Origin: Escherichia coli
GTDB taxonomy: Bacteria; Pseudomonadota; Gammaproteobacteria; Enterobacterales; Enterobacteriaceae
NCBI RefSeq assembly: GCF_051903065.1
Contig: NZ_CP178438.1
Length of the DNA stretch: 64,000 bases
Strand: one strand, 5' to 3'
Below are positions 14,990 to 53,800 of this stretch, in pieces. A program made the position numbers and the translations under genes. The notes under the pieces are model-generated. The model worked only from the letters and a program-made list of their open reading frames with translations, made no database searches and was not told the origin of the DNA. Positions within the stretch are counted from its first letter, which is position 1; each line of letters starts with the position of its first letter.

Positions 14990-15170
14990 AAGAAATCATT
15001 TCTTAGAGAATTATTGAGGTCCGGTATCATACCGACTGCAATAATGAAATAAGAGCAAACGAAGAAACTTTCAGAATTAGTCCCGGCGGCGCAGAAAATT
15101 TTGCTATTCGCCTCGCAAGAACGGAGAGCCGTCGATTGACACTAAGGGCGGAGTGACATAATTTCAGGAG

Positions 15171-15310
15171 TGAGGGTTAGGGAAAGGTTTCCCCCTCCCC
15201 CTGGTGTTCTTAGTAAGCCTGGAAGCTAATCACTAAGAGTATCACCAGTATGATGACGTGCTTCATCATAACCCTTTCCTTATTTAAGGCCCCTTCCTCG
15301 GGAGGGGCTT
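15171..15310 (+). ncRNA. sibA: SibA antitoxin sRNA, antisense to ibsA (ends approximate)
   Basis: Sigma70 promoter TTGACA (15136-15141), 17-nt spacer, TAATTT (15159-15164). Transcript fully overlaps ibsA on the opposite strand and ends at a GC hairpin plus T-rich tract near 15285-15310. Confidence 0.6.
15210..15269 (-). CDS. ibsA: Type I toxin IbsA, 19-aa hydrophobic peptide MMKHVIILVILLVISFQAY
   Basis: Hand-translated minus-strand ORF; too short for the ORF track. Matches the Ibs toxin family. Confidence 0.75.
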   Translation of the reverse strand: MMKHVIILVILLVISFQAY

Positions 15311-15504
15311 TCCCGTTTCAGCATCCCGCTGAAATCGTCGGCTTACCTCCTTTCGCCATGCATGCAGTCTATCGCTGACTTGCGGATAAAATAGTTTCCA
15401 GTGTGATTATTGCGTAACGTCTCGCAAAGAATATTTGCTGGCAGGATCGCAGACTGCAAAGCCTGCAGATTGACAATCTGACCGTGAAGGCATACTTTCA
15501 GGAG

Positions 15505-15640
15505 TGAGGGTTGAGCGGGGTTTCCCCCGCCCTGGTAGTCTTAGTAAGCTGGCCAGCTAATGACTAAGAGCACCACGATGATGAGTAGCTTCATCATGAC
15601 CCTTTTCTTATTAAAGGATGACAAAATAATACAAATCACT
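15505..15640 (+). ncRNA. sibB: SibB antitoxin sRNA, antisense to ibsB (ends approximate)
   Basis: Second copy of the Sib repeat. Promoter TTGACA (15470-15475), 17-nt spacer, TACTTT (15493-15498). Overlaps ibsB. Confidence 0.55.
15541..15597 (-). CDS. ibsB: Type I toxin IbsB, 18-aa hydrophobic peptide MMKLLIIVVLLVISWPAY
   Basis: Hand-translated minus-strand ORF in the second Sib/Ibs repeat unit. Confidence 0.75.
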   Translation of the reverse strand: MMKLLIIVVLLVISWPAY

Positions 15641-15763
15641 TAAAAATCATCGCATTACACGAATTTGCGGTTAAATAATAGACTACAAAGTGCGACAAAA
15701 CGCAACATATGCAGTCACTATGAATCAACTACTTAGATAGTACTAGTGACCTGTAACAGAGCA

Positions 15764-15806
15764 TTAGCGCAAGGTGATTTTTTGTCCTCTTGCGCTAATT
15801 TTTTGT
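15764..15806 (+). terminator. Candidate rho-independent terminator
   Basis: 10-bp inverted repeat TTAGCGCAAG / CTTGCGCTAA (15764-15773 / 15789-15798) followed by TTTTTTG. The 15-nt loop is long, so confidence is moderate. Confidence 0.4.
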
Positions 15807-15961
15807 CATCAAACATGTCGTTCTCCAGAGAAGCATAAAGCCTTGCAATCAAGTGCAAAGCTTTGTGTACCAGAGTTTTTCCTCATCAACTACCACAAGT
15901 ATCGATCGATTGAGACTTGGATGATAGACTTCATGCCTTTCAGAACTCATTGATTACATAA

Positions 15962-16324
15962 ATGTTAAAGCTATTTGCAAAGTACACCTCGATTGGTGTG
16001 CTGAACACACTTATACACTGGGTGGTTTTTGGTGTATGTATCTATGCCGCGCATACCAATCAGGCTCTGGCAAACTTCTCAGGTTTCGTTGTGGCTGTGA
16101 GCTTTAGCTTCTTCGCGAATGCAAAATTCACATTCAAAGCATCGACTACAACGATGCGCTACATGTTATATGTCGGGTTCATGGGAACACTGAGTGCTAC
16201 TGTTGGATGGGCTGCTGATAAGTGCTCGCTTCCTCCAATTATCACTCTTATCACCTTCTCCGCCATCAGCCTGGTGTGCGGTTTCGTCTATTCAAAGTTC
16301 ATTGTCTTTAGGGATGCGAAATGA
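15962..16324 (+). CDS. gtrA: GtrA-family bactoprenol-glucose flippase, 120 aa
   Basis: 120-aa four-helix membrane protein; near-identical to phage P22/SfV-type GtrA as I recall it ([20 protein letters not shown]...). Confidence 0.9.
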
Positions 16325-17241
16325 AAATATCTCTGATTGTTCCTGTCTTCAATGAAGAAGATGCGATACCAATTTTCTATAAAACGGTACGTGAATTCGA
16401 AGAGTTGAAGCCTTATGACGTCGAAATTGTATTCATAAATGACGGAAGCAAAGACGCCACGGAATCAATTATTAACGTTCTGGCTGTTTCAGATCCGCTA
16501 GTTGTTCCGCTGTCATTTACACGAAACTTTGGTAAAGAACCAGCATTGTTTGCAGGGTTAGACCATGCAACGGGCGATGCTGTTATTCCTATTGATGTTG
16601 ACCTGCAAGACCCGATTGAGGTTATTCCTCATCTGATTGAAAAGTGGCAGGCAGGTGCCGATATGGTGCTGGCAAAACGTTCAGATCGTTCAACTGATGG
16701 AAGATTAAAACGGAAAACCGCTGAGTGGTTCTATAAGCTTCACAATAAAATAAGCAATCCAAAGATTGAAGAGAATGTCGGCGATTTCCGCCTGATGTCT
16801 CGAGAGGTGGTAGAAAATATCAAACTACTGCCAGAGCGTAACCTGTTTATGAAAGGCGTTTTATCTTGGGTTGGCGGTAAGACGGATGTTGTTGAATACA
16901 TCCGTGCTGAACGCGTTGCCGGAAGCACAAAATTCAATGGCTGGAAGCTATGGAACCTGGCGCTTGAGGGAATTACAAGTTTCTCGACCTTCCCCTTACG
17001 CGTGTGGACTTACATCGGCCTACTTGTTGCGGGACTCTCGTTCCTTTACGGGGTGTGGATGATTTTCGACACATTGGTGTTCGGTAATGCTGTCCGCGGA
17101 TATCCTTCTATTCTTGTATCTATTCTCTTTTTAGGTGGCATTCAGTTAATTGGTATTGGGGTGCTGGGAGAATACATCGGCAGAATTTACGTAGAAGTTA
17201 AAAATCGTCCTAGATATGTACTTAAAAAAATAAAAGGTTAG
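16321..17241 (+). CDS. gtrB: GtrB bactoprenol glucosyltransferase (GT2 family), 306 aa
   Basis: GT2 motifs (DGSKDAT, DVDLQD) and C-terminal TM helices; 4-nt overlap with gtrA. Confidence 0.9.
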
Positions 17242-17246
17242 AGAAT

Positions 17247-18623
17247 ATGCGCATTTCAAAAAATGAAAAATACCTTTCATTGATTATGATAGCATTTTAC
17301 TTGCCATTTTTATTATCTGATTTACCTTTTAGGGACGATCTAAGCAGGACTTATTGGGGTTTTGTTGGGTTGTCTCAATTAGGTAGACCATTGGCAGACA
17401 TTGTTTATAGTTTGGTTGGATTTGGCTATGAGGGTGTTAACCTCAGCCCTATGCCTAAAATTATAGCGCTATTAATAATATTATCGTCTGCGATATTTTC
17501 ATACAGAACGCTATTCAACTCAATAGGAGCAACCGGGTTACTCTCTTTATCTATTTTCTTTGCAAATCCATTTATTATTCAAAATTTTGCATATCAGTAC
17601 GACTGTTTTCCAATGGCTTTATCTATTTTATTGGCGACATTATCTGTATTATATAGACCAAGATCAAGCTATTTTTATTTTCTTAGCGCATCATTTTTAT
17701 TAACTAGCGCAATATCACTTTATCAAGCATCTATATTTATTGCGGCATCTTTATATTTATGTAAGATCACTATTTATTTCGTTAACGATAGAAATCGCAG
17801 AGATGTTTTTATAGAATGCATGCTTACTCTTTTGTCTTCTTTTTTCTCTATTGCATGTTACATGGTGATTTTACTTTTTGTAGAAAATGGCGTGTCAAAA
17901 CGAGCTAGCATTACAGGGCCAAGTGGCGTTATTAGCAATATCGAGTTCCTTTTGGATAGGTTAAATAGCCTTTACCACTCGGTTTATATTTTTTTTATTA
18001 TTTTGTCATTAGTATTAATATTCTCTCTCTTGAGGATTTTTATCCTAAAAAGATATATCAATTTATGCGTGATATTACTAATACTTGTTGCGCTGCTAGT
18101 CTCTTCCCTACTCCCATCTGTCATCCTTAAGGAAGGGTTCGCCGGACCAAGAGTTTTAATGTCTATTTGTTCGGTATTTATATTTATATCTATCATTGCA
18201 ACCGGAAAAGAAAAATACGTATACGCCATGGTGTTATCTGTTTTAATGATGCATTCCATGTCTATTTCATACGCATTTTCAGGTGACATTAAGGCACAAT
18301 ACGATAGATACTCGATGATATCATCTCTTGTTTATAAAGATATTGATAATTACGTGTCGTCAAATACAGCAAAAATATACATTTCTTGCAAATCAACCCC
18401 ATCACAAAGAGAGTACGTTTTCTATAAATTCAACAATCACATAGCATGGCTCAACCCAGAAGAGGCTTGGGCTATCAGGTTTTTCATAAGAAATAATGGC
18501 GAGAGCAGGGTGGTGCACTCATGGGATGAATGCTTTGATATAAATGGAGGTAAGATCGTTAAAGAAAATGCATTTTATAAAATGGTTGAAAATAAAAATT
18601 CTTACTATTTCATAATGAAATAA
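17247..18623 (+). CDS. gtrC: GtrC-type serotype-specific O-antigen glucosyltransferase (polytopic membrane protein), 458 aa
   Basis: Third gene of a gtr operon; highly hydrophobic and AT-rich with strong codon bias relative to its neighbours, typical of horizontally acquired gtrC-type genes. Target specificity cannot be called from sequence. Confidence 0.7.
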   Translation: MRISKNEKYLSLIMIAFYLPFLLSDLPFRDDLSRTYWGFVGLSQLGRPLADIVYSLVGFGYEGVNLSPMPKIIALLIILSSAIFSYRTLFNSIGATGLLSLSIFFANPFIIQNFAYQYDCFPMALSILLATLSVLYRPRSSYFYFLSASFLLTSAISLYQASIFIAASLYLCKITIYFVNDRNRRDVFIECMLTLLSSFFSIACYMVILLFVENGVSKRASITGPSGVISNIEFLLDRLNSLYHSVYIFFIILSLVLIFSLLRIFILKRYINLCVILLILVALLVSSLLPSVILKEGFAGPRVLMSICSVFIFISIIATGKEKYVYAMVLSVLMMHSMSISYAFSGDIKAQYDRYSMISSLVYKDIDNYVSSNTAKIYISCKSTPSQREYVFYKFNNHIAWLNPEEAWAIRFFIRNNGESRVVHSWDECFDINGGKIVKENAFYKMVENKNSYYFIMK

Positions 18624-18630
18624 ATATAGG

Positions 18631-18662
18631 CGGGGGGGGGGGTAACAATCCCCCGTCTTTTT
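18631..18662 (+). terminator. Rho-independent terminator after gtrC
   Basis: CGGGGGGGGGGG-TAACAAT-CCCCCG hairpin (G11 run pairing with C5) followed by TCTTTTTT. Confidence 0.6.
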
Positions 18663-18849
18663 TGCTACGGCAAGTGATTAATCGCAACAATTGATTATTA
18701 TTTATAACAAATGCGTCATCTACCGCTATTCGGGTGACATTTTCATTCCTTATCTAAAATACAATTAAATAATTAACAAATAATTAAACGAATTGCATGA
18801 AAAATACATTACCGAAAAGTTAGAATAGTGTGCGATTGAAAGTTAATAA

Positions 18850-21381
18850 CTATATAACGGATAGCGTTCTTATGTCATTGCTAGCTGGTGATGCCATAAC
18901 TATCTGTGTTACGTTAGCGCCAGACACCGTATACGTCAGAATTACGTTACCAACGGCTCCTATATTAAAGTTTTGTTTAGCTCCTGAGGTACCTATAGCT
19001 CTGGCATTCGTTAAAGTATACGTGCTTCCCGCAGTGAATCCTGTAGCAATTACAAATTGTTGACCAACTTTAAAAGGAACTGTCATTGTTGCGGATGTTG
19101 ACTCGACAGTAGCAAACGGCAGGCCAGGCTGTTTAACCCCCGTCACATCCCAGAACTCACAGTTACGCACCAATGCTCGACCAATTAAATCGCGAGTTAC
19201 AGGGAATGTTGTCTGGTCCTGTGATAAGAATGCTCCAACAATTTGCACGTTATCGAGCGTAATATCGTGTACTGTGGCCCCATCTATAGGACTTAACGTT
19301 GGTGATGCACTCCATAATTTACCACCCTTCATTTTGATACTTACAGGCCCGTTAGGGTCTGTCCCTCTAAAAGCGCGAATACTCTCAAATTTGCAATCTG
19401 TAAATTCATAGCTGCCGCGTTGGTTAGTTTCGAACAATGTATACGCCTCACCTGACACTCCGTGTCTTACATCACTGGCAACAACGCGCGGATTATGGCG
19501 GAATGATGCAGACGTGACAGAGAAAAATGGCGCGCAGACATCGTTAATAAGAATGTCTGTTGTATAACGCCCTGTAACAGCGCTCTCAGAGTCACTCATA
19601 TCCGAATATAGCGCTTTGAAGCGGGAGAAGTCTATGTTTAGACCTATTCCTGCACTTTTTGGTAATTGTCCAAAATCAAGCCCGTCAATAACAATTTTCT
19701 TAGGGAAATAAAGGGTGTTATCTCGAGCTACAGTTATTAATGTACCCGGATAAGTCAAGACGAAACCTGGATACATTTTAACATCTTTCAAGGTAACATT
19801 ATTGAATAACGTGGGGCTTATAGGCGACCCGCTACTAGGCCCTTGCCCAGCAGTAACAGCTGCGTTTATGATACCATTTCCGGGTGCGCCGCTGCGCAGG
19901 CCAGTTAACTTAATATTCTCCATGTATAAATCACCATCGAAGCCCCCCCCCAGCGTCAGAGCGAGTCGAAATAATATTACCAGGCTTATATGGTGAAGCA
20001 TTAAATATTGAATTGGTTACATACAAATCCCCGATACCAGAAGCGACGACACCATAAGTCCCAATATTACAGTCATTTATCTTTAAGTAGTTTTGGAAAG
20101 GTCTGTGGAAATCAATTCGACTAAGATCGCATCTTTCAAACCTTATATTGGCGCAATTATTGCTGCCTGTTGCCCCCCAGCCTTTACCATTTGCCGTTGC
20201 GTTTTTGATAGTGACATCCATAGAGTTAGATAGGGTTAAGGCGTATGCGTAGCTATCAACACCATCTATTAAGGCGTTTGCTATGGCTGGCGTGTATAAA
20301 CCATCAACTGTAACATCATAGCTTTCGTTAATTTCTATCCTGATATCATTAAAGTTTTGCGTTATCGGTCTGTTAATAAATGTCGTATTAACCAAGCGAA
20401 CTCGTGATGCTTGATTAATATAAATAATTCGATAATTCTTTGTAAGACTTTCGTCTATAGTCAATCCCTTAAGGTCTGCACATCTTTGCGTATTTTAAGT
20501 GCTTTAATTGATGTTGCGTTAGTTCCTAGGGCGTACTTAAGCGGGTTTTCAATGTATCCACGGTTATATACCCTGTTGAAATCTACGCGAGTTTGATTAA
20601 CGCCATCGAAAATAAACATAGGTTGAGATGTCGATAACTGAATGAAGCAACCGTCAAGGTCGGTATTAGAAGCCAAACCATCAAGATAGTTGCTACCTAT
20701 GTCGCGAGAGCCACTGGTGGACGTATTAACTCCATTAACTGGAGCCGAACCAGAACCGTATGTAACAGGGGCGACAGGCTGGCTAATAACAATTTGCCCT
20801 TTCCATGTAGCCGATGGTTTAAGCACACACCCGGTTAAATCCACATTTAAACTTTTAATATCAAGATAAGTATCACCATCTAGTAGAAAAGTTCCGTCAG
20901 ATTGCCTAACGTCTAAATTATTTGAATAAGCATAGTTCAGTGCCTTAGCTATGGCGGGAGCGTCATTTGTTACTCCATCACCAATAGCGCCAAACTCCTT
21001 CAACGTTACCCAGTATTTTACTTTCTCCAAGCTCTTTTGATATTGATCTGGGTCGTACTTCAGCACATTAGGAAAATAGAACTGCTGCGCACCATATGCA
21101 TCATAAACAGCCATAGAGTGGCCTTGCACAGTTACGAACTTGGCAATCTGTCCGTTATATACCGGATATCCAGCAGCGTTAATGATGATTGGTTGTGAAA
21201 CAGGAACGTGAGAACCATCCTCATTCTCCACATAAATCTGAATCTGGTTTTCAGGATTTACCGGGTCAGTGTCAATTTTTCCTATATAAATTTTGCCATT
21301 GGCAACCGCTTTAAAAGAACGTGCCATAGTGAAGAGTTGCGAAGGCATGCTTACCACAACATTTGCGGTGATATCTGTCAT
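18850..21381 (-). pseudogene. P22-like phage tailspike gene broken into three reading-frame segments (306 + 177 + 383 aa)
   Basis: The N-terminal ~120 aa ([34 protein letters not shown]...VLKYDPDQY) is the conserved P22-family tailspike head-binding domain. Downstream segments are beta-helix-like. Frames switch near 20461-20464 and at a G9 run (C9 on + strand, 19943-19951). Confidence 0.7.
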
Positions 21382-21438
21382 TTAATTTGCTCCAGATTCA
21401 AGGAATCGCCGCAGCATGGCTACGGTGAATTTTGTGCA

Positions 21439-21462
21439 TAAAAAACCCAGCCGAAGCTGGGT
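21439..21462 (-). terminator. Candidate rho-independent terminator upstream of the tailspike gene
   Basis: On the minus strand: CCCAGC-TTCG-GCTGGG hairpin followed by TTTTTTAT. Confidence 0.4.
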
Positions 21463-21522
21463 CGTTGCGTTGGTTATCTGTAAGTAGTTATGTGCTTAGG
21501 TAATTTGTATTAGCTCAGACCT

Positions 21523-22690
21523 GATCTGACAGTTACCGGTTATTTATACAGGTATCTGTCAGATTACATCCGGCTTAAATTTTTCTCGGCCCAGATGCGC
21601 TTTCCATCAAGTAACGTTTCCATTGGCGTCCGCCCATTGCGCATTTTTCCCTGATGGGTTCGTTCATTATTATAGTGAGCCAGCCACTCATCAAGATCCG
21701 ATTGCAATGTATCGAGAGCTCCATACAACTTTTTACGGAACGTCACCTGATAAAATTCGTTCAGTATCGTCTTATGGAACCGCTCGCAGATGCCATTTGT
21801 CTGCGGTGACATCGCTTTAGTTTTCGTGTGGTCTATATCATTTATTGCCAGATATAGCTGGTAGTCATGCTGTTCCACCTTACCGCAGTACTCTGTTCCT
21901 CTGTCGGTCAGTATTCTCAGCATTGGCAGGTTTTGCGATTCGTAAAATGGCAACACACGATCATTCAGCAGGTCAGCAGCCGTGATCGGTGTTTTGGTTA
22001 CATACAGTTTACAGTGTGCGACCTTCGAGTAGGTGTCAACGAACGTTTGCTGATAAATGCGTCCGACTCCTTTCAGATTACCCACGTAGAACGTATCCTG
22101 AGAGCCCAGATAACCGGGATGTGCGGTTTCGATTTCACCACACGCTTCGTCATCGCTGGCTTTACGCTCCAGAACGACTATCTGTGCTTCTGTCAGCTCG
22201 ATACCGTCACGGGCTACTTTTTCCTCCAGTGCTTTCAGCCGCTTTTTGAAGTTCTCAAGGTTATGCCGCAGCCAGACAGAACGTACACCCCTTCCTGAGA
22301 TGAAGACACCTTGCTTACGTAGCTCATTGCTGGTCCGGTGCTGGCCATGCGCAGGGTACGCGATGGCATAATCAACAACGGCCCGCTCAGTTGCATCATC
22401 GGTACGATTTTTTAGATTGGGCGTTCGTCGAGTGCGGTTAATCAGTGCATCCACCCCACCTTCATCAGCCAGTTCGCGATAACGGTAAAACGTATCACGC
22501 GAGACGCCCATGATTTTGCAGGCCTTCGAAACATTGCGGAGTTCTTCAGCCAGATTGAGCAAACCGGCTTTGTGTTTGATGACGGGATTGTTAGTATGAA
22601 GCATGAGAGTTACCTCGTGTTTTGTATAAGGATTCGACACCCATATCAAAACCGGTAACTCTCAACCTTTCAAGGCTCAGTGTCAGATCA
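21523..22690 (-). mobile_element. IS481-family insertion sequence (~1.17 kb)
   Basis: Terminal inverted repeats TGATCTGACA at 21523-21532 and, as reverse complement, 22681-22690. Single DDE transposase gene inside. No obvious target-site duplication. Confidence 0.6.
21564..22604 (-). CDS. IS481-family DDE (rve) transposase, ~346 aa
   Basis: N-terminal HTH region plus rve-type catalytic core ending in the IS481-family signature SPQTNGICERFHKTI. Start taken at MLHTNN; the track ORF begins 15 codons upstream at 22649. Confidence 0.75.
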   Translation of the reverse strand: MLHTNNPVIKHKAGLLNLAEELRNVSKACKIMGVSRDTFYRYRELADEGGVDALINRTRRTPNLKNRTDDATERAVVDYAIAYPAHGQHRTSNELRKQGVFISGRGVRSVWLRHNLENFKKRLKALEEKVARDGIELTEAQIVVLERKASDDEACGEIETAHPGYLGSQDTFYVGNLKGVGRIYQQTFVDTYSKVAHCKLYVTKTPITAADLLNDRVLPFYESQNLPMLRILTDRGTEYCGKVEQHDYQLYLAINDIDHTKTKAMSPQTNGICERFHKTILNEFYQVTFRKKLYGALDTLQSDLDEWLAHYNNERTHQGKMRNGRTPMETLLDGKRIWAEKNLSRM

Positions 22691-22755
22691 AGTCGCGACT
22701 AATACATGTACCCGTCATTCAGACGATTCCCGACAGTGTTTCATAATTCCTCCAT

Positions 22756-35888: not shown

Positions 35889-35924
35889 CATACAGCTGCA
35901 TTTATTAAGGTTATCATCCGTTTC

Positions 35925-36011
35925 GCTGAAAAACATAACCCATAAAATGCTAGCTGTACCAGGAACCACCTCCTTAGCCTGTGTAATCTCCCTTACACGG
36001 GCTTATTTTTT
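35925..36011 (+). ncRNA. cyaR: CyaR (RyeE) Hfq-dependent sRNA, ~87 nt
   Basis: GCTGAAAAACATAACCCATAAAATGCTAGCTGTACCAGGAACCACCTCCTTAGCCTGTGTAATCTCCCTTACACGGGCTTATTTTTT matches CyaR as I recall it, including the terminator hairpin and U-tail. Confidence 0.85.
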
Positions 36012-53661: not shown

Positions 53662-53800
53662 AGTTTGCTCCTGCCATAACGTGAAGAAGCAATGACCTGG
53701 TGGTCCGTGACTTCCCTACGCTGGCATTATCCAGATCAGGTGATACGGGTATTTCTCAGCCTTCACGCAGAAGGGCACCCCGAGTCGTTTGGTTGCGATG
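53662..53800 (-). promoter_or_regulatory. TPP (thi-box) riboswitch in the thiM leader
   Basis: Minus-strand sequence ...GGGGTGCCCTTCTGCGTGAAGGCTGAGAAATACCCGTATCACCTGATCTGGATAATGCCAGCGTAGGGAAGTCACGGACCACCAGGTCATTGC... matches the thiM TPP aptamer as I recall it. Confidence 0.85.

Follow-up and report, generated by a model that had tools for sequence, protein, structure and literature searches.

The tailspikes of P22-like podophages (P22 gp9, Sf6 gp14, HK620 gp9, and those of CUS-3 and the Escherichia coli BL12 argW prophage) have a head-binding domain (PF09008) that is followed by a modular, swappable beta-helix receptor-binding domain. When such prophages decay, parts of them can persist in the host. 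Cryptic prophages, such as CPS-53/KpLE1 of E. coli K-12 with yfdGHI (gtrAB) at argW, keep O-antigen modification genes; their virion genes are decayed or deleted, and IS elements bound the remnant. One report (PMC3303846) describes the use of tailspike genes in prophage remnants for O104:H4 targeting.

A second group of described systems concerns genes whose reading frame changes at a short motif. In the poly-G/C contingency loci of Neisseria, Haemophilus, Campylobacter, and Helicobacter surface genes, slipped-strand mispairing acts on poly-G tracts of at least 8 nt within coding sequence, and several tract lengths coexist in natural populations, shifting the downstream frame. Poly-G contingency loci are not known from E. 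coli. Programmed frameshift sites carry a slippery motif at every point where the frame changes; its length is constant, and homologues share it.

Here we describe a locus that touches on all of these systems, located within a 64,000-nucleotide stretch of E. coli DNA (contig NZ_CP178438.1), referred to here as the window. Our data indicate that the region is very probably a P22-like tailspike pseudogene, stranded in an approximately 7-kb prophage remnant, which is undergoing ordinary decay and contains a hypermutable homopolymer.

Three open reading frames derive from one P22-like tailspike gene

The region at 18850-21381 (minus strand) contains three consecutive open reading frames (ORFs), at 21381-20461 (306 aa), 20464-19931 (177 aa), and 20001-18850 (383 aa). 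The ORF list bears out an earlier reading of this DNA, made from the letters alone (the sequence-only reading), that the first and third ORFs share a frame (21381 and 20001 are 0 mod 3) and that the middle one lies in another (20464 is 1 mod 3). An intact 843-aa tailspike of E. coli BL12 aligns collinearly with all three ORFs, and the true frame contains no other stops; the split is therefore not a chance arrangement of reading frames. Restoring one base and removing one G yields a P22-type tailspike of exactly 843 codons, rather than the approximately 850 aa first estimated for a continuous ORF, and the repaired protein is collinear with its BL12 counterpart and approximately 88% identical to it. 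At the nucleotide level the two genes are 84% identical. The two lesions, -1 and +1, cancel out in length, so that the window gene and the intact BL12 gene both come to 2532 nt.

The head-binding domain is present (Pfam Head_binding, PF09008; residues 1-113, E 2.1e-66), and phmmer matched the N-terminus of the 306-aa piece to the solved structures of Sf6 gp14 (E 9e-65) and the P22 tailspike (E 5e-54). Structure prediction on the repaired frames, proposed as a check in the sequence-only reading, returned a contiguous beta-helix tailspike. The AlphaFold2 model has a mean pLDDT of 81, with residues 121-843 mostly above 85, both break points included. The best Foldseek match was 8x8m_A, the Klebsiella K64 tailspike K64-ORF41 (E 5e-40, TM 0.76/0.82), and other beta-helix tailspikes and depolymerases ranked after it. 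The predicted architecture of the repaired gene is an N-terminal head-binding domain and a contiguous beta-helix domain for receptor binding, the latter a predicted depolymerase. The confidence of this model indicates that the remnant was once one contiguous tailspike.

The BL12 homologue is encoded by one 843-aa ORF in a complete P22-like prophage located at argW, where it follows the ejection-protein genes and adjoins gtrABC and intS. The window gene is neither uninterrupted nor part of a P22-like virion gene cluster. Since its domains and fold fit but its ORF is not intact, we regard it as a pseudogene member of the P22-like tailspikes. Megablast recovered six near-identical copies from 5,426 complete E. 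coli genomes; in addition, BL12, GS04, and BHD6 have intact genes with 84% identity. Among 50,697 phage records, megablast matched only the conserved 5' head-binding module, with coverage of at most 13%; the receptor-binding domain is therefore absent at the DNA level from sequenced phages. No intact copy of the remnant allele was found among 5.8 billion protein clusters, where the best intact relative is 87% identical.

The remnant lies in a small island without other virion genes

The island occupies approximately 7 kb between mdtA and the ibs/sib toxin-antitoxin repeats and consists of an IS481-family element, the tailspike remnant, and gtrABC. Ordinary E. coli chromosome stops at approximately 15617 and picks up again at approximately 22706, and only 6-7 of the 5426 complete E. 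coli genomes carry the island. Gene order is the same in all near-identical copies: mdtB-mdtA, IS481-family transposase, tailspike remnant, the convergent gtrC-gtrB-gtrA, ibs/sib, and yegL. The O-antigen glucosylation genes gtrA-gtrB-gtrC (15962-18623, plus strand; Pfam GtrA_DPMS_TM, Glycos_transf_2, and Glucos_trans_II), convergent with the tailspike remnant, are the sole intact phage-derived genes left. The IS481-family transposase ORF (21564-22649, minus strand) bounds the phage-derived DNA, which ends at approximately 21505, and abuts mdtA. DNA similarity to the BL12 prophage is confined to 18854-21505, which covers the tailspike and 124 bp of upstream DNA, and to 15832-17217 (gtrAB, 97.8%). 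Within the retained 124 bp, a terminator-like hairpin (21444-21463, minus strand) separates the tailspike start codon from the IS481-family element.

The gene content of the island includes no virion, lysis, replication, or integrase genes. Upstream of the tailspike, gp10, gp26, and the ejection-protein genes are absent and the IS481-family element stands alone. Since the remaining virion genes are missing, the tailspike at this island has no virion to assemble onto. A promoter scan of 18500-22750 returned 9 promoter-like sites against 10.2 expected and gave no support for an internal promoter. The region upstream of gtrA (15600-16000), where we looked by eye for the clustered-GATC signature of Salmonella-type Dam/OxyR control, contains one GATC. 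Related tailspike 3' fragments, cut by IS1 or IS3, occur at the sbcB-dacD locus of other E. coli strains (L005 and L006).

Break 1 is a fixed 1-bp deletion

We defined the lesions by aligning the window and three close copies to the intact BL12 gene. The DNA-level set comprises 25 copies, 21 of which were fetched additionally and chosen to cover the tract states described below. At break 1, a single base pair has been lost between 20473 and 20472 on the minus strand (BL12, ACT ATT AAA GGG; remnant, ACC-TT AAG GG), which leads to a TGA stop at 20463-20461, codon 307. The site has no homopolymer and no slippery run; the sequence-only reading had likewise noted the absence of a homopolymer, although it placed the break near 20461-20464, approximately 10 nt downstream of the deletion. 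All 25 copies examined as DNA carry the deletion, each at the mdtA-IS481-gtr locus, and 175 contigs (NCBI, ENA, JGI, and Logan assemblies) encode the exact 306-aa N-terminal fragment that break 1 cuts short. With this upstream lesion fixed, no length of the downstream G tract restores the full tailspike.

Break 2 is a hypermutable G tract

Break 2 is a G9 homopolymer at 19943-19951 (minus strand), one G over the in-frame G8 (GCT GGG GGG GGC TTC, or AGGGF). As first described, both overlapping frames read Gly-Gly-Gly over the nine G (...SDAGGGLRW* and ...LTLGGGFDGD...). It had been proposed that a change of one nucleotide in either direction would fuse the middle and last segments. This holds for the loss of one G (G8), but a gain of one (G10) leaves them split and a gain of two (G11) is needed instead.

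One protein cluster holds all ORF fragments of the remnant, and we compared the peptides that span the tract. Two states with pure G runs are in frame: G8 (AGGGF; P0053 on 7 contigs, P0057 on 30) and G11 (AGGGGF; P0059, 11 contigs). An interrupted tract, G7-T (AGGVF; P0061 and P0032, 6 contigs each), is also in frame. Out of frame are G9 (AGGGLRW*; P0050 on 62 contigs, P0056 on 97, P0062 on 4) and G10 (AGGGASMVIYTWRILS*; P0052 on 42, P0058 on 18, P0060 on 6). The 25 DNA copies, a state-selected sample that gives no estimate of frequency, comprise two with G7T, two with G8, ten with G9, seven with G10, and four with G11. Exact-pattern scans for the tract and its flanks returned no matches in IMG/VR viral contigs or JGI metagenome contigs, so the census is drawn from E. 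coli genome and protein collections.

Tract length differs among copies that are otherwise identical. Members of one 2.5-kb SNP haplotype (haplotype A), which are without substitutions, carry G9, G10, or G11; haplotype B carries G9 and G10; and copies one or two SNPs from haplotype B carry G8 (L002 and L007) or G9 (the window and L001). This amounts to at least four independent slippage events at the tract, compared to 14 substitutions over the other 2,531 positions, and slippage therefore exceeds the per-site substitution rate hundreds-fold. In agreement with this, E. coli indel rates are known to grow exponentially as homopolymers lengthen (PMC8510543). Every length state is found repeatedly, in several independent assemblies of different origin. 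The G9 of the window is common to its close relatives (H1, H2, and L001), and its exact 177-aa product is found on 62 contigs. Since lengths differ on identical haplotypes and recur across assemblies, the tract is a real slipped-strand hypermutable site and the G9 of the window is an inherited, common state. The comparison of tract lengths across isolates that the sequence-only reading had called for supports hypermutability, one of the three explanations it had offered; another, homopolymer sequencing error, is not needed, since G9 recurs in many independent assemblies, L001 and H2 among them.

The window contains only two G runs of 8 or more. The second, a G11 run at 18632-18642 (plus strand), starts 8 nt past the gtrC stop and makes up the 5' side of a terminator-like hairpin. 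Other copies have 9, 10, 11, 18, or 19 G in this run, which accounts for the differing length of the spacer between tailspike and gtrC. Several draft contigs end exactly at this tract, which we attribute to the long run of 9-19 G. This non-coding run varies as much as the coding one or more, which supports ascribing tract variation to run length and not to selection on the tailspike.

Selection on the remnant

We considered whether slippage at the tract could serve a function. Slippage might toggle an N-terminally truncated, virion-independent tailspike/depolymerase domain of approximately 514-537 aa, which would act on the surface polysaccharide of the cell itself or on incoming phage. The tract is truly polymorphic and mutates recurrently, the G8 and G11 states give a stop-free ORF of 537 or 515 aa, the fold predicted 3' of break 1 is well formed, and the remnant adjoins retained O-antigen modification genes. 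The predicted 537-aa ORF left by in-frame tract states spans most of the beta-helix domain. However, in-frame states are a minority: approximately 60 contigs are in frame and approximately 229 out of frame, counts that are approximate given alternative gene calls and clonally related isolates, which places in-frame states at approximately 20% compared to 33% expected at random. Substitutions among the remnant copies (11 nonsynonymous and 4 synonymous, a small sample) fit the neutral 77:23 site ratio. Whole-gene dN/dS against BL12 is 0.10; for the middle segment, synonymous sites are saturated in the simple estimator used.

The position of the tract itself also argues against such a role. In an aligned set of relatives spanning 43-87% identity, all 43 with a locatable motif, every intact one included, read DAGG[Y/F/W]FDG, and intact homologues have no G tract. 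Remnant copies encode either Val (GTC, in haplotype C) or Gly (GGC) in place of the Y/F/W, such that the tract displaces a universally aromatic residue. A G6 run in the middle segment (20173-20178, minus strand) is G7 in the haplotype C copies L010 and L011, giving this lineage a further +1 frameshift within the segment that would be toggled. One G11 copy also has a split gtrC. The putative start is only a TTG picked as the longest ORF, promoter-like sites are not above chance (see above), and the truncated product would be without approximately 185 residues of the receptor-binding domain (120-305). Taken over these small samples, the 11:4 substitution ratio, the in-frame fraction, and the lost aromatic residue speak against selection maintaining the ORF and the tract, and we consider a toggled depolymerase domain very unlikely. 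Given the fixed break 1, the out-of-frame majority, the neutral-looking substitutions, and the loss of the conserved aromatic residue, the tract does not look like a working switch.

A broader proposal is that poly-G slippage in the island acts as a switch at either tract. The tailspike tract would toggle a free truncated depolymerase domain (the 514-537-aa ORF of G8 or G11 cells) that trims the O-antigen or capsule of its own cell, or the 9-19-nt tract in the gtrC hairpin would tune gtrC expression. If true, E. coli would have surface phase variation based on simple sequence repeats beside its O-antigen glucosylation genes; we judge this very unlikely.

It is highly improbable that the gene is intact in the cell and that its frameshifts are homopolymer or indel errors of the assembly. 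G9 runs are error-prone on long-read platforms, and the net length of the window gene matches that of BL12, with lesions of -1 and +1. Break 1, however, lies outside any homopolymer and recurs throughout the 25 independent copies and on the 175 contigs with its product, G9 is shared by the nearest relatives (H1 and H2) and the 62 contigs with the exact 177-aa product, and every tract length recurs in several independent assemblies. We rejected this explanation because the lesions recur in independent assemblies. Programmed recoding at the G run, whether by frameshifting of the ribosome or by slippage during transcription, would yield a full-length tailspike, but it has a negligible probability and was rejected: although G runs can support tRNA-Gly slippage and the middle-frame stop lies only four codons past the tract, slippage there cannot rescue the fixed upstream stop at codon 307 present in every copy, the tract varies in length (8 to 11) instead of being conserved, intact homologues lack it altogether, and no virion genes remain for the tailspike to serve.

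Discussion

Our data indicate that the tailspike locus is a decaying pseudogene, as the sequence-only reading had suggested in one of its alternatives: its deletion is present in 25 of 25 copies, there is no known intact copy, and the other virion genes are missing. The same reading had separately proposed a slipped-strand hypermutable site, and G8, G9, G10, and G11 on otherwise identical haplotypes agree with it. The two proposals are both right and mutually compatible. The locus has a collinear homologue, frameshifts, lost phage neighbours, and relaxed constraint, and these features place it among prophage-remnant pseudogenes. Aside from the two frameshifts, its 843 codons are free of stops, and therefore inactivation is recent, or residual constraint is possible given only 15 substitutions.

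The lesions, their fixation or variability, the genomic context, and the fold of the repaired protein can be read directly, and from here we infer an order of events as well as an absence of function. Loss of the rest of the prophage would have left the tailspike without a virion to join. The gene may then have been inactivated by the 1-bp deletion, which falls at codon 304, before the known copies diverged. Subsequent T-to-G substitutions at the conserved aromatic codon could have extended a short G run to G8, probably by the codon path TTC/TAC to GTC to GGC as the run grew from G6 to G7 to G8, a path for which the outgroup does not polarise GTC against GGC. At G8 or more, the run would have become a slippage hot spot, drifting between G8 and G11 across isolates, with the window at G9 (+1). 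Since all haplotypes, the GTC one included, carry break 1, the G8 tract was most likely born in an already dead gene.

These findings have practical consequences. Three annotation calls of "hypothetical protein" or "head-binding domain" correspond to one tailspike pseudogene and should be labelled as such. The two G tracts (8-11 and 9-19 nt) could serve as fine-scale typing markers within island-bearing lineages. Furthermore, the locus is a natural example of homopolymer slippage outpacing point substitution hundreds-fold in E. coli. Its G tract was apparently made by substitutions in a dead gene. The locus also illustrates that a hypermutable tract can mimic a contingency locus. The finding is ordinary in kind, and it is a tidy population-level illustration of homopolymer hypermutability.

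Compared to described systems, the remnant shares the head-binding domain of the P22-like tailspikes (in fold alignment, its N-terminal domain is 88% identical to Sf6 gp14N), the beta-helix receptor-binding domain that follows it, and, with the intact BL12 prophage, the adjoining gtrABC. Its receptor-binding domain resembles that of Klebsiella K64-ORF41 (8x8m) and not those of P22, Sf6, or HK620. Unlike P22-like tailspikes, it is twice frameshifted and has no portal, tail, or ejection genes, and unlike P22-like prophages it lies at a non-tRNA locus (ibs/sib-mdtA) beside an IS481-family element. It shares with contingency loci the slipped-strand mispairing of a coding poly-G tract of at least 8 nt and the coexistence of several frame-shifting tract lengths in a natural population. 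In contrast to those loci, it has no ON state (products in the cluster reach at most 537 aa, and at 90% identity or above no intact copy was recovered), no in-frame excess, and no sign of purifying selection, and its tract is missing in functional homologues. Programmed frameshift sites differ from it in that every shift of frame has its own slippery motif, whose length is conserved; the locus is not a recoding site.

The closest parallel is with cryptic prophages. As in CPS-53/KpLE1, O-antigen modification genes were kept; virion genes have decayed or been deleted, IS elements bound the remnant, and the sbcB-dacD fragments of L005 and L006 are comparable cases. Retained O-antigen genes, an adjacent decaying tailspike, and an IS boundary are the usual fate of P22-like prophages. 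Unlike other cryptic remnants, this one has kept an almost full-length tailspike; it carries just two lesions, and one of these, the hypermutable tract, is still live.

Extent and setting of the island

Relative to typical E. coli, the entire insertion in contig NZ_CP178438.1 is a prophage remnant of roughly 7 kb (about 15618-22705) that consists of gtrABC, the tailspike pseudogene and an IS481-family element, and it is flanked by the ibs/sib repeats and mdtA. This insertion site is not a tRNA site, and the island lacks an integrase gene. Only 6-7 of 5,426 complete genomes carry the island.

The transposase ORF of the IS481-family element (21564-22649, minus strand) lies directly upstream of mdtA, and its DNA shares about 87% identity with the ylbG remnant region in E. 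coli K-12. For mdtA, the longest ORF (22706, 455 aa) extends 40 codons past the annotated start of the 415-aa protein, which is probably a mere effect of ORF calling. Rfam matches at the gathering threshold in the window are to two SIB antitoxin RNAs, accompanied by ibs toxins (15136-15284 and 15470-15612, both plus strand), the CyaR sRNA (35923-36008, plus strand) and a TPP riboswitch (53696-53792, minus strand). All are ordinary core features of E. coli.

Tailspike sequences in other copies and at a second locus

The middle segment of the tailspike pseudogene contains a G6 run (20173-20178, minus strand). In two other island copies, L010 and L011, this tract is G7, and therefore the tailspike of that lineage carries a third frameshift; its protein P0032, a remnant fragment in a large protein collection, begins MVKAGGATG.

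Tailspike-related fragments, with 82-93% nucleotide identity, are also present at a separate locus, sbcB-dacD, in L005 (NZ_AP027790.1, 6001-6540) and L006 (NZ_CM129523.1, 6084-8060). An IS3 or IS1 element cuts them off on the 5' side, and both fragments adjoin an opposite-strand gene for a 471-aa hypothetical protein, so the tailspike 3' end has been kept more than once together with its neighbor.

The gtr genes and the sequences bordering them

A G11 run (18632-18642, plus strand) lies between the stop codon of gtrC (18621-18623) and that of the tailspike (18850), and it supplies the 5' arm of a hairpin resembling a terminator, in which the G run is followed by TAACAAT, CCCCC and T6. Across 20 other island copies the run contains 9, 10, 11, 18 or 19 G, and several draft-assembly contigs (L022, L025 and L026) stop at it. 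The run may have an effect on gtrC termination or on mRNA stability.

While gtrA and gtrB are 97.8% identical to their counterparts in the argW prophage of E. coli strain BL12, gtrC (17247-18623, plus strand) has no nucleotide match to the gene at the gtrC position in BL12; this is a serotype-specific cassette swap of the usual kind. In one island copy, L020, gtrC is broken into ORFs of 154 and 254 aa. Upstream of gtrA, the phage-derived stretch of roughly 130 bp contains, by eye, only one GATC (within 15900-15912, plus strand). Phase variation of the Dam/OxyR type in Salmonella gtr operons involves clustered GATC sites.
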